Of a stretch of DNA of 64,000 nt, positions 45,356 to 49,233 are shown one piece after another (position 1 is the stretch's first letter; each line of letters begins with the position of its first letter). The stretch is taken from contig SCUB01000020.1 in NCBI GenBank assembly GCA_004297465.1, forward strand, positions 38,183-102,182. The letters are read 5' to 3'. Made by a program: the position numbers and the translations under genes. Source of the stretch: Xanthobacteraceae bacterium. Its GTDB lineage: Bacteria > Pseudomonadota > Alphaproteobacteria > Rhizobiales > Xanthobacteraceae. The notes beneath the pieces are model-generated. The model worked only from the letters and a program-made list of their open reading frames with translations. It was not told the origin of the DNA and did no database searches.

Positions 45356-45430
45356 TGGGGCGTCGCCAAGTGGTAAGGCAGCGGATTTTGATTCCGCCAT
45401 GCGGAGGTTCGAATCCTCCCGCCCCAGCCA
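45356..45430 (+). tRNA. tRNA-Gln (anticodon UUG)
   Basis: Hand-folded cloverleaf: acceptor TGGGGCG/CGCCCCA, D arm GCC..GGC, anticodon stem GCGGA/TCCGC with loop TTTTGAT, T arm GGAGG-TTCGAAT-CCTCC, discriminator G, encoded CCA. Confidence 0.93.
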
Positions 45431-46170: not shown

Positions 46171-47238
46171 GTGGCTGACTTTTTTGAAATTGATTTCCTG
46201 GACGTCGAGACGAAGAGCAGTGGCGACGCGATTTGTCTGCGCTACGAGCTCAACGGCCTGACCTGCATACACGTTGTCGACGCCGGCTATCAGACGACCG
46301 GGGAGAAGCTCGTCGCGCACATTCGCAAGCATTACAACAACCCGACGTACATCGACCATCTCGTGGTCACCCACAACGACGGCGATCATACCGGCGGCGT
46401 CGAGCAAGTGCTCAAGGAGTTCAACATCGGCGCGATCTGGATGTTGTGCCCCTGGAACTACGCTGCCGAGCTGCTCCATCGCTTCAAGCGCTACTCGACC
46501 GTCGACGGTTTGACGCAGGCCCTGAAGGACTCCTTCCCGAACTTGGCGGCGATGGAGAAGCTGGCGATCAAGAAGGACATCCCGATCTGCGAGCCGTTTC
46601 AAGGCGCCGATATCGGCGCCTTTCACGTCTTGGCGCCGACCCGCGCGCGCTTCCTCGATTTGGTGGTGGCGTCGAACAAGACGCCGGATGAAGCGACGGC
46701 CGCTTTCGACGCGATTCAGGAGGCGTTCCTGGCGACGCAGGTGAAGGCGGTCATGAAGGCGGCGAATTGGGGCGATGAATACTTTCCCGCCGGCGAAACC
46801 AGCACGGAAAACGAGATGAGCGTGGTCCAATACGCCACGCTGTGCGGCAAGAAGATCCTGCTCACCGGTGACACTGGTCGTGCCGGCCTGCAGGAGGTGA
46901 TCGACTACGCGCCGAGTGTCGGACTCATTTTTCCTGGCATCGATCATTTCCAAATCCCGCATCACGGCGGCCGGCACAACGTCAACACCGAGCTGCTAGA
47001 CCAGATCTTGGGGCCGCGGCTGGGGAATCCCCATGCCTCGACCACCTTCACAGCAATCATTAGCTCGGCGAAGGAAGACGAAGATCATCCGCGCAAATCG
47101 GTCGTGCGCGCCATGCATCACCGCGGAGCCAAAGTTATCACCACGGAGGGCCGCGACGTCCGAACGCACCGTAACGCTCCCGACCGCGGCTGGGTGGCCG
47201 TGGACGGCGTTTCGTATCCGAACGAGCAGGAAGACTGA
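46171..47238 (+). CDS. stand-alone ComEC/Rec2-type MBL-fold metallo-hydrolase (gene 1 of the operon)
   Basis: VVTHNDGDHTGG (HxDxDH, codons 46372-46389), a later LLTGD and IPHHGGRHN, as in the ComEC beta-lactamase-like domain. No TM or signal sequence. Confidence 0.8.
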   Translation: MADFFEIDFLDVETKSSGDAICLRYELNGLTCIHVVDAGYQTTGEKLVAHIRKHYNNPTYIDHLVVTHNDGDHTGGVEQVLKEFNIGAIWMLCPWNYAAELLHRFKRYSTVDGLTQALKDSFPNLAAMEKLAIKKDIPICEPFQGADIGAFHVLAPTRARFLDLVVASNKTPDEATAAFDAIQEAFLATQVKAVMKAANWGDEYFPAGETSTENEMSVVQYATLCGKKILLTGDTGRAGLQEVIDYAPSVGLIFPGIDHFQIPHHGGRHNVNTELLDQILGPRLGNPHASTTFTAIISSAKEDEDHPRKSVVRAMHHRGAKVITTEGRDVRTHRNAPDRGWVAVDGVSYPNEQED

Positions 47239-47239
47239 G

Positions 47240-48091
47240 ATGTCGCTTCAAGACATGATCAACAATTTGCTGGACCCTTATTCGCGGCAAGCGCGGCATT
47301 TCCCGGGCCTGCTGTCGGTCTTTCCGCCGCTAATCACCGCTCTGGCTTGGTTCCCGGCGCTGCTGATGTCGAACATCGGCACGATCCTGCTCACGATCAT
47401 CACGTCGTGCGGTCTGCTTTATCTGCTGGGCTCGTGGGCGCGCACGCGGGGTAAGAAAGTCGAAAAGCGCTTGCTGGAGGAGTGGGGCGGCTGGCCGACT
47501 ACGATCTTCCTACGTCACTCAGGGCCGCTGGATCCTTCAACTCGCGGCCGATATCACACATTTCTAGCCGCCAATGTCCCCGGCATCGTCATGCCGAGCG
47601 CGGCGGATGAAGGGGCGGATCCGAAGGCCGCCGACGCAGTCTATGCCTCGGCGGTGAAATGCCTGAAGGAGCTCGTTCGGAAGACGGCTCCACTGGTCGA
47701 CAAGGAAAACGCCCAATACGGCTTCCGCCGCAACCTGCGCGGCATGAAGCCGATTGCAATCACTGTCTGCTTTGTGGCGGCGATCGGCACCTTGCTGGCC
47801 ATTGCACTTACGGCGCCGACATTCATGCCGGCGGATCTTGCGGCGGCGGCGCGCAACACGCCGGTGCCGATCTGGGTCGCGTTCGCCGTCGATGTGGTGG
47901 CGATCATCGGTTGGGTCGCGATCGTCAATGACGCCTGGATACGCCAGGCCGGCGATCAATATGCGGATGCGCTGCTCGCGACGTGCGACCGCGCACCGCC
48001 AAAGAAGGCCGTCGGAGACGGTTCTGCCGCGAGTGGGAAAAAGTCTAGAAAGAACACCGCGAAAGCGGAGAAACAAGAAGGAAACGCGTAA
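47240..48091 (+). CDS. four-TM membrane protein with a Lys-rich C-terminal tail (gene 2 of the operon)
   Basis: Two N-terminal and two C-terminal hydrophobic helices flank a soluble domain of about 110 aa. Tail reads KKAVGDGSAASGKKSRKNTAKAEKQEGNA. The ATG lies 1 nt after the upstream stop, and its TAA shares a base with the next ATG (TAATG). Confidence 0.7.
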   Translation: MSLQDMINNLLDPYSRQARHFPGLLSVFPPLITALAWFPALLMSNIGTILLTIITSCGLLYLLGSWARTRGKKVEKRLLEEWGGWPTTIFLRHSGPLDPSTRGRYHTFLAANVPGIVMPSAADEGADPKAADAVYASAVKCLKELVRKTAPLVDKENAQYGFRRNLRGMKPIAITVCFVAAIGTLLAIALTAPTFMPADLAAAARNTPVPIWVAFAVDVVAIIGWVAIVNDAWIRQAGDQYADALLATCDRAPPKKAVGDGSAASGKKSRKNTAKAEKQEGNA

Positions 48092-49233
48092 TGGTGAAGA
48101 CAACACACTTCCAGGTCGACAATGGCGACATGACTCTGATCGAGCTTGAATCCGGTCGCCGCATTCTGGTCGACATCAAGATTCGCGTTGCAACCGCCGA
48201 CGACGGCGATGAAGACATCCCCCCGGTCGGGGACCAGCTGCGCGAGCGGCTTAAGCGCGACGACAAAGAGCGGTTCTACGTCGACGCTTTCCTGCTGACG
48301 CATCCTGACAAGGATCACATCTGCGGTCTGCGCGAGCACTTCCACCTGGGCGATCCGTCGACTTGGTCGAAGAAGGACGACAAGATTATTATCCGCGAGA
48401 TGTGGTCGTCGCCAATCGTGTTTCGGCGAACGTCCAAGAACCACAAGCTTTGTGATGATGCGGTCTCCTGGTGTGACGAAGCTCGCCGCCGTGTCGCCAA
48501 GTTCAAGGCGGAGGGCGCGCAGGCCGACGGCAACCGCATTCTCATCATGGGCGAGGACGTCGACGGCAAGACTGATGATCTGGGCGCCATCCTGATCAAG
48601 ACGGACGAGGTCTTCTCCAAGATCTGCGGTGTGGTCGACTTTTCCTTTGAAGCACGTCTTTTGGCGCCGATGAAGGCGGACAACGATGACGAAGAAGAGG
48701 TCCTCACCAAGAACAACTCCAGCGTCGTCATGCGGATTGATCTTAAGCTTTGGAGCACCACAAAGGCTCGCTATCTGATCGGCGGTGACGCCGAGGTCGC
48801 GATCTGGGAAAAGCTGTGGGATCGCCACAAGTCTCGCAAGTCCTGGCTCCAATATGATGTCCTCATCGCACCGCATCACTGCTCCTGGCATAGCCTGTCG
48901 TGGGACAGCTGGTCGGATCTCGGCGAGAAAGCCAAGGTTTCGCCGAATGCGCGCAGCGCGCTCGGCCAGCCGCTGCTCGGCGCACTGATCGTCTCGAGCA
49001 GTAAGCCAATCAAAGACGACAAGGATGACCCGCCGTGCATCCGCGCGAAGCGCGAATATCTTGATATTCTCACGGAAGTGAACGGCGAATTCCGTTGCGT
49101 CTGCGATGGTGCGAGCGACGAGCCGATGGAAATCGAGATCCTGTCGGCCGGACCGAAGGTCAAGCGCCTGAAGGTCGCCGCGACCGTTGCGGCAACCACA
49201 GGTCTCGGTAGCCAGCCTTTCGCGCATGGCTGA
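48091..49233 (+). CDS. second ComEC-type MBL-like protein ending in ...GSQPFAHG (gene 3 of the operon)
   Basis: LLTHPDKDHICGL (HxDxDH, codons 48301-48318), GGDAE and APHHCSWHS parallel the motifs of gene 1. The C-terminal residue is Gly (codon 49228-49230). The stop overlaps the start of gene 4 by 8 nt. Confidence 0.75.
   Translation: MVKTTHFQVDNGDMTLIELESGRRILVDIKIRVATADDGDEDIPPVGDQLRERLKRDDKERFYVDAFLLTHPDKDHICGLREHFHLGDPSTWSKKDDKIIIREMWSSPIVFRRTSKNHKLCDDAVSWCDEARRRVAKFKAEGAQADGNRILIMGEDVDGKTDDLGAILIKTDEVFSKICGVVDFSFEARLLAPMKADNDDEEEVLTKNNSSVVMRIDLKLWSTTKARYLIGGDAEVAIWEKLWDRHKSRKSWLQYDVLIAPHHCSWHSLSWDSWSDLGEKAKVSPNARSALGQPLLGALIVSSSKPIKDDKDDPPCIRAKREYLDILTEVNGEFRCVCDGASDEPMEIEILSAGPKVKRLKVAATVAATTGLGSQPFAHG

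Follow-up and report, generated by a model that had tools for sequence, protein, structure and literature searches.

A probable four-gene operon combining a predicted 6A-MBL anti-phage core with a second ComEC-like metallo-β-lactamase and a membrane protein

The anti-phage system 6A-MBL, which includes a protein with a metallo-β-lactamase (MBL) fold, was reportedly named and tested against phage by van den Berg et al. (Cell Host Microbe 32:1427) in 2024. Here we analyze a cassette of four genes, numbered 1 to 4 in 5' to 3' order, that lies within a stretch of 64,000 nucleotides from a Xanthobacteraceae bacterium (assembly GCA_004297465.1, contig SCUB01000020.1, positions 38,183 to 102,182), which we call the window. 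Genes 3 and 4 have the sequence characteristics of a 6A-MBL system, gene 1 encodes a second MBL protein of another family, and gene 2 encodes a protein with four predicted transmembrane (TM) helices. The four genes are probably a single, tightly coupled operon that combines two related modules and lies on a horizontally acquired island.

In the classification of Iyer et al. (2006; PMC1779556), operon type 6a comprises a triple-module protein, with E2, E1 and JAB modules, and a specialized MBL. Types 6a and 6b are sister operon types, and 6b became the type II form of CBASS, an anti-phage signaling system based on cyclic oligonucleotides (PMC1779556; 10.1101/2022.03.31.486616). There, cGAS has a conserved C-terminus, disordered in structure, which Cap2 adenylates and Cap3 cleaves (10.1101/2022.03.31.486616). 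6A-MBL is counted among the defenses against jumbo phages, and cited as an anti-phage system confirmed by experiment in Pseudomonas aeruginosa (PMC13276650; 10.1101/2025.09.30.679545). Our literature search, which did not reach the 2024 study by van den Berg et al., found no mechanistic paper on 6A-MBL, and it found no paper on PDC-M48, the PADLOC candidate system that gene 1 resembles.

An earlier note on this DNA, made from the sequence alone, had presented genes 1 and 3 as divergent ComEC-type MBL paralogues flanking the membrane gene. We have computed the family memberships of the proteins, their folds, the conservation of their catalytic residues and C-terminal tails, the statistics of gene order and the coupling of the operon.

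Genes 3 and 4 and the 6A-MBL family

The gene 3 protein matches the NCBIfam model NF058524 ('anti-phage 6A-MBL system MBL-fold protein') over profile positions 1-346 of 346, scoring 422.3 bits (E = 1.4e-126) against a cut-off of 220. The gene 4 protein scores 549.7 bits (E = 1e-164, cut-off 320) with NF058523 ('6A-MBL system cap2_3 protein'). On these sequence matches genes 3 and 4 are assigned to the already named anti-phage 6A-MBL system, operon type 6a. The earlier note had correctly recognized soluble ComEC-like MBL proteins, and it had missed both this identity and the glycine tail of gene 3 described below.

Gene 4 additionally matches Prok-E2_A (E = 6.9e-23) and ThiF in Pfam, and gives JAB and E1-E2 matches in PADLOC. 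Its predicted E2, E1 and JAB catalytic elements are collected in Table 1, with conservation measured over 74 homologues. The automatic open reading frame (ORF) of gene 4 starts at a TTG at 49187, and the ATG at 49226 fits the coupling pattern of the cassette; in this shorter form the NCBIfam model starts as late as residue 62. No cyclase gene was found among the four genes and their two neighbors with Pfam, PADLOC and NCBIfam, and CBASS was rejected as the identity of the operon for lack of a cyclase.

Gene order was compared in the best 80 gene-3 loci out of 398 species-representative genomes that encode gene-3 relatives. Among the 398 genomes are members of the Alpha- and Gammaproteobacteria, cyanobacteria, Acidobacteriota, Latescibacterota, Spirochaetota, Nitrospinota and Binatia. 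In 78 of the 80 loci gene 4 comes next after gene 3. In an alignment of 76 gene-3 sequences that extends to ~25% identity, residues H71, D75, H76, D233, H262, H263 and S265 do not vary, and D73 is almost invariant.

The AlphaFold2 (AF2) model of gene 3 has a pLDDT of 92.6 and a pTM of 0.91, with the final 20 residues falling to a pLDDT of 55-61 and adopting no secondary structure. Close relatives end in ...GSQP(L/F)AHG, some of them extended by RPDGRH, RSDR, RR, KSR or GPDDED. More widely, the sequence [HYFW][GA] occurs within the last 14 residues of 192 of 201 full-length gene-3 relatives (to ~30% identity); 135 of these proteins stop exactly at that point, and the other 57 continue for 1-8 residues. 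To judge from sequence, ubiquitin-like precursors and the cGAS of type II CBASS follow the same pattern. Since the disordered tail with its [H/Y/F]-[G/A] end is present in the gene-3 family only of the two MBL families, gene 3 is likely to be a substrate of the E1 domain. The gene 1 protein has an acidic C-terminus instead, ...YPNEQED (47215-47235), without the features of a conjugation substrate, and its family ends in a strongly conserved acidic Y-P-(E/D)-(E/D)-Q-E-(D/E), mostly YPEEQE[DE], in which the last residue is rarely Gly or Ala. By analogy with CBASS, only gene 3 of the two MBLs would be wired to gene 4.

Two MBL families related to ComEC

The two ORFs on which the earlier note was based are present, and in each the H-x-D-x-D-H motif, the later aspartate and the PHH motif agree with its coordinates (Table 1). 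Gene 1 matches the PADLOC model PDC-M48B (PDLC04676) over profile positions 1-357 of 357 (513 bits, E = 9.7e-155) and Lactamase_B in Pfam (E = 1.1e-9). It scores a mere 19 bits with NF058524, where the cut-off is 220, and is therefore not a member of the 6A-MBL enzyme family. Across 40 homologues of gene 1 the residues H68, D70, D72, H73, D234, H264 and H265 are invariant. Its AF2 model has a pLDDT of 86.8; a segment of 25 residues, 174-198 (46690-46764), lies below 50.

Direct comparison of the two proteins by BLASTP aligns 37 residues around the metal motif (E = 4e-4), and recent duplication was rejected because the alignment extends no further. Comparison of the two family alignments by hhalign gives a match of 244 columns, with 20% identity, a probability of 97.5% and E = 7.6e-12. 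It begins at the N-terminal (S/N)GD strand, takes in HxDxDH, the (E/K)NxxS strand and the GD motif, and ends at PHH. The metal motifs are not chance strings, since their residues are invariant within both families. Genes 1 and 3 thus represent, as far as sequence can tell, separate families that diverged anciently (~20% identity) and are homologous within one MBL clade. The description of divergent paralogues holds in the sense of this old homology and fails in the sense of a duplicated pair.

Both AF2 models have as their best PDB match in Foldseek the β-lactamase-like domain of ComEC, 9ic4 (E = 1.7e-13 for gene 3 and 1.3e-13 for gene 1), with TM-scores of 0.53-0.56 normalized on the query and 0.72-0.73 normalized on the target. 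ComEC chains also come first for both families in profile-to-PDB searches, so that the ComEC-type label given earlier is borne out by fold and profile alike. The next-best fold for both models is the phosphorylcholine esterase Pce. Each protein combines H-x-D-x-D-H, the motif IV Asp, PHH(G/C) and ComEC as its nearest fold, the features of the ComEC-like MBL clade. Weaker matches of both to the models for Lamassu LmuA, DRT-associated RTasMBL and Avs1a place them in a defense-associated part of that clade. The earlier note had also considered a lactonase or glyoxalase II affiliation, or an incomplete metal site; with a full motif set, and with the ComEC nuclease domain and the phosphodiesterase Pce as nearest folds, neither agrees with what we find.

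Neither protein is ComEC itself. A Pfam scan finds no competence domain (PF03772) in gene 1 or gene 3, and a 19-residue Kyte-Doolittle scan, with maxima of 1.1-1.25, finds no TM-like segment in either, in accord with the earlier description. With TIGR00361 (cut-off 190) gene 1 reaches 43.7 bits and gene 3 gives no match. An identity as bona fide ComEC/Rec2 was rejected for both, because they have no channel domain and score below the curated cut-off. Many homologues of both genes carry the public name 'ComEC/Rec2 family competence protein' (P0037, P0123, P0125, P0135 and others). As these homologues have no channel domain and fall far below the cut-off of the ComEC model, the names are a systematic over-annotation, wrong on thousands of such genes.

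The earlier note had proposed that the MBL proteins, as products of duplication, form a heterodimeric nuclease, or are a catalytic and a regulatory subunit, on either side of their membrane partner. Both are indeed ComEC-like and lie in one operon, and a second MBL-like ORF of some kind is found in 9 of the 80 loci using relaxed hidden Markov models (HMMs). However, they belong to different curated families of ~20% identity whose relationship is seen by profile only. A gene-1-type MBL occurs in only ~5 of the 80 gene-3 loci (L014, L026, L046, L057 and weakly L048), and is thus absent from ~94% of them, and gene 1 is found elsewhere without gene 3. The separate families and this scarcity argue against an obligate heterodimer. 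Every metal ligand is kept in both proteins, and since both retain all their catalytic residues neither has the appearance of a dead regulatory copy. We consider the proposal highly improbable. We take gene 1 to be an accessory to the 6A-MBL core, which joined the operon from a different MBL family.

In two gammaproteobacterial loci, L050 (10512-11357, minus strand) and L062 (10515-11351, plus strand), a short gene-3-like MBL ORF of ~280 residues directly follows gene 4. These ORFs score 68-92 bits on the gene-3 HMM, and are a third kind of second MBL.

Cassette layout, gene order and the membrane protein

The four ORFs are co-directional on the plus strand. Genes 1 and 2 are separated by a single nucleotide (TGA, G, ATG), genes 2 and 3 overlap by one nucleotide in a common TAATG, and genes 3 and 4 overlap by 8 nucleotides in ATGGCTGA, within which lies the ATG of gene 4. 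All four genes have similar GC contents of 0.59-0.61, against ~0.69 for the backbone. The GC content is ~0.70 before a tRNA-Gln gene and ~0.58-0.60 after it, and the cassette starts ~740 bp from this gene. A tblastn search for a decayed copy of gene 2 on the 3' side of gene 4 (51301-52500) gave at best E = 0.007 over 28 residues. The tight junctions, the shared GC content and the lack of a gene 2 remnant beyond gene 4 suggest one transcription unit with a permuted gene order. Scans for promoter and terminator consensus sequences found no excess over shuffled expectation.

Between the TM pairs of gene 2 lies a conserved soluble domain, in which E124 and E156-N-x-x-Y-G-F-R-R-N165 stand out in the family alignment. 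A longer ORF call begins at ATG 47033 and would give 352 residues, overlapping gene 1 by 206 nucleotides; since the alignments of all homologues begin at the Met at 47240, that is most likely the start and the longer ORF is probably spurious. Nothing credible was found for gene 2 in Pfam, PADLOC, NCBIfam or a PDB profile search. One of 17 gene-2 homologues matches Salyut (PF19227) in Pfam with E = 6.7e-4 and the other 16 do not, which is too weak to use.

A homologue of gene 2 directly follows gene 4 in at least 52 of the 80 loci, and most of the remainder have another ORF there, of 211-240 residues with 2-4 predicted TM segments, so that overall ~70 of the 80 have a TM gene after gene 4. The loci with two MBL types always have gene 1 before gene 2, and a single gene 2 each. 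In L057 and L046, from unrelated lineages, the order is gene3-gene4-gene1-gene2 with gaps of 0-2 nucleotides. The order of the window, gene1-gene2-gene3-gene4, occurs in none of the 80 related loci. Conversely, in six independently sampled gene-1 loci no gene 3 or gene 4 was found within 6-8 kb of gene 1. Two of these (L081 and L091) have a gene1-gene2 pair, L093 has gene2-gene1, and in L082, L083 and L092 no gene 2 is recognizable beside gene 1. Gene 2 is therefore both the commonest third gene of 6A-MBL loci and the partner of stand-alone MBL proteins of the gene 1 type.

Plasmid records contain gene-3 relatives in 268 cases and gene-1 relatives in 44. Plasmid pAS80-1 of Acinetobacter seifertii (L094 510-5071) encodes a gene-3-like protein with the tail ...PMPHG-AS, followed by a gene-4-like protein and a gene-1-like protein 50% identical to gene 1.

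In a maximum likelihood tree of gene 2 the window copy groups with those of the stand-alone pairs L081 and L091, in a clade (support 100/99) that also holds the gene3-gene4-gene2 loci L008-L011 of Bradyrhizobium and Rhodopseudomonas. The gene-2 copies of the other dual-MBL loci sit in a different clade. The tree suggests that the TM partner has been swapped between the two MBL lineages and that dual-MBL operons arose more than once. The arrangement of two MBLs sharing a TM protein is a recurrent variant for which we found no description, in a literature search that did not reach the 2024 study.

Several observations weigh against reading the cassette as one operon of MBL nucleases sharing a membrane partner. 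Iyer et al. (PMC1779556) state that 6a operons are 'usually two genes', and a TM gene is absent from some 6A-MBL loci; on ~15 Acinetobacter plasmids, including those of A. baumannii, the order is gene3-gene4-gene1 with no TM gene following. The PDC-M48A component was sought in gene 2, in gene 4 (whole and as three pieces), in the neighboring genes and in gene-2 homologues, and gave no match. The second-best fold match, Pce, is a phosphorylcholine esterase and not a nuclease. Finally, gene1-gene2 could be just an independent neighboring defense module.

That last point leads to a reading in which a stand-alone, PDC-M48B-like gene1-gene2 module and a minimal gene3-gene4 6A-MBL lie side by side with no cross-talk, which we regard as unlikely. 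Pairs of gene 1 and gene 2 do exist alone, and the window copies are closest to them (68% identity for gene 1 and 59% for gene 2); the rule of two genes would suit a minimal 6A-MBL, and clustering of defense genes happens anyway. Yet the overlap of genes 2 and 3 makes all four genes look translationally coupled, and there is neither a TM gene nor a remnant after gene 4, although most relatives have one. The two pairs also come together in the unrelated L057 and L046, gene 1 again follows gene 4 on the Acinetobacter plasmids, and every dual locus makes do with one gene 2.

Table 1. Features of the cassette and its flank, in window coordinates
Feature	Position	Strand	Remarks
tRNA-Gln(ttg)	45356..45430	+	ARAGORN; left edge of the lower-GC island with the cassette
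Gene 1	46171..47238	+	355 residues, GTG start; soluble ComEC-like MBL hydrolase, PADLOC PDC-M48B family
Gene 1 metal motif H68-N-D70-G-D72-H73	46372..46389	+	Aligns with HPDADH of ComEC 9ic4
Gene 1 motif IV Asp (TGD234T) to motif V (P263-H264-H265-G)	46867..46965	+	D234, H264, H265 invariant; GDT 46867-46875, PHH 46957-46965
Gene 2	47240..48091	+	283 residues; 4 predicted TM helices, ~24-64 and 172-229 (hydropathy)
Gene 3	48091..49233	+	380 residues, ATG start; predicted 6A-MBL 'enzyme', ComEC-like MBL fold
Gene 3 metal motif H71-P-D73-K-D75-H76	48301..48318	+	H71, D75, H76 invariant; D73 at least 90%
Gene 3 motif IV Asp (GGD233AE) to motif V (P-H262-H263-C-S265)	48784..48879	+	Conservation in 76 homologues; GDA 48784-48792, PHH 48871-48879
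Gene 3 disordered C-terminal tail, residues 361-380, ending ...GSQPFAH-G380	49171..49230	+	Predicted adenylation/conjugation site
Gene 4	49226..51532	+	768-residue E2-E1-JAB fusion (predicted 6A-MBL Cap2_3)
Gene 4 predicted E2 catalytic Cys114	49565-49567	+	At least 95% conserved
Gene 4 predicted E1 loop G377xGSxG382	50354-50371	+	At least 95% conserved
Gene 4 predicted E1 catalytic Cys555	50888-50890	+	At least 95% conserved
Gene 4 predicted JAMM motif H711-x-H713...S720..D723	51356-51394	+	At least 95% conserved

Just 3' of the cassette, on the minus strand (52337-54996), lie genes for a DUF2235/Tle1-like hydrolase (Pfam E = 8.3e-57) and a membrane protein of 470 residues. On the Bradyrhizobium plasmid p4_1 (L095 5203-8691) a gene-1 homologue is followed by a multi-TM ORF of 218 residues, an ORF of 314 residues and a DUF2235 protein; given this arrangement, the co-location of DUF2235 with MBLs of the gene 1 type may recur. 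The low-GC island that holds the cassette also encodes, ~4 kb further 3' (55354-56820, minus strand), a large serine recombinase with Resolvase and Recombinase domains, which is likely to be the mobility gene of the island.

A possible mode of action and comparison with known systems

In the operon as we read it, the first module would consist of gene 3, a putative ComEC-like phosphoesterase with a binuclear metal center and a flexible tail ending at Gly380, and gene 4, a Cap2/Cap3-like fusion of E2, E1 and JAB domains. If type II CBASS is a guide, Gly380 of gene 3 would be adenylated by the E1 domain of gene 4. Gene 3 would then be handed on as a thioester, from E1 Cys555 to E2 Cys114, and ligated to a lysine of a target, priming or relocating the hydrolase. 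The JAB domain may trim C-terminally extended precursors, and reverse the conjugation. The second module would be gene 2 together with gene 1, the MBL that has no conjugation tail, and the stand-alone gene1-gene2 pairs may be a 'type I' version of the same MBL and TM logic, without Cap2/3. Both MBL types of the window would use gene 2 as their single TM partner. The substrates of these hydrolases would be phosphodiesters or nucleic acids, and gene 2 would be a membrane effector or anchor with its soluble domain in the cytoplasm.

A different scheme is signaling in the manner of CBASS or Pycsar, with gene 3 not as the effector that kills but as a sensor, or as a signal-producing phosphodiesterase primed by conjugation, and genes 2 and 1 as interchangeable effectors. 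Gene 3 does occupy the position of the cyclase, and Ye et al. class it with 'signaling enzymes'. The third position is variable, being taken by the 4-TM protein, another TM family, an MBL of the gene 1 type or both, and the soluble domain between the TM pairs of gene 2 could bind a ligand. But searches with gene 2 revealed neither a nucleotide-binding domain nor a known sensor domain, and MBL phosphodiesterases are not known as signal synthases. Moreover, gene1-gene2 pairs work without gene 3, and gene 2 would therefore have to respond to a signal from gene-1-type MBLs as well. Such signaling strikes us as rather doubtful.

A wider generalization, which we put forward tentatively and think less likely than not, is a broad undescribed defense family of ComEC-like MBL and 4-TM pairs. 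It would have a 'type I' form without a regulator, gene1-gene2, beside a 'type II' form, gene3-Cap2/3-gene2, equivalent to 6A-MBL, mirroring types I and II of CBASS. The TM partner would be exchanged between them, and in the window one membrane protein would serve, or be served by, two differently regulated hydrolases. Should gene 2 be the true effector, or the anchor in the membrane that holds the nucleases where DNA enters, much like a ComEC split into separate proteins, the action of 6A-MBL would be accounted for.

Taken by itself, the core of genes 3 and 4 is merely one more member of a named and tested anti-phage system. The comparative picture may be more useful. An [H/Y]-[G/A] ubiquitin-like tail runs throughout the 6A-MBL enzyme family. 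The 4-TM family, unannotated as yet, is the commonest third gene of 6A-MBL and also partners a tail-less, autonomous MBL lineage, and dual-MBL operons recur in several lineages, the Acinetobacter plasmids among them. Together these offer concrete and cheap ways to test by what means 6A-MBL kills phage or blocks it.

With the C-terminal nuclease domain of ComEC/Rec2 (9ic4, 30bt, 9vc6) both MBLs of the window share the motifs H-x-D-x-D-H, N-x-x-S, (G/A)D and PHHG/C. They differ from ComEC/Rec2 in being soluble and stand-alone, with no OB or competence channel domain, and in inserts of ~100 residues that the ComEC domain lacks. PDC-M48 resembles the window in its component B, which gene 1 matches over the full length; here no component A was detected, and the partner, in stand-alone loci too, is an unannotated 4-TM protein.

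The likeness to 6A-MBL is close. Genes 3 and 4 exceed both equivalog cut-offs and are adjacent in the canonical order, with conserved catalytic residues of the MBL, E2, E1 and JAB domains and a C-terminal Gly tail on gene 3. In the window, however, the 4-TM gene lies 5' of the core rather than after the E2-E1-JAB gene, and it is preceded by a second MBL of another family.

Type II CBASS, which comprises a CD-NTase, Cap2 (E2-E1), Cap3 (JAB) and an effector, has the same E2-E1(-JAB) chemistry as 6A-MBL. In both, a partner enzyme, and not a ubiquitin-like protein, carries the disordered conserved C-terminus that ends in a small residue, and a membrane protein is frequent in the effector position. 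The cassette differs from type II CBASS in having neither a CD-NTase nor a known cyclic-nucleotide receptor domain. Here the counterparts of Cap2 and Cap3 are joined in one chain, and the enzyme offered for conjugation would be a hydrolase rather than a synthase.

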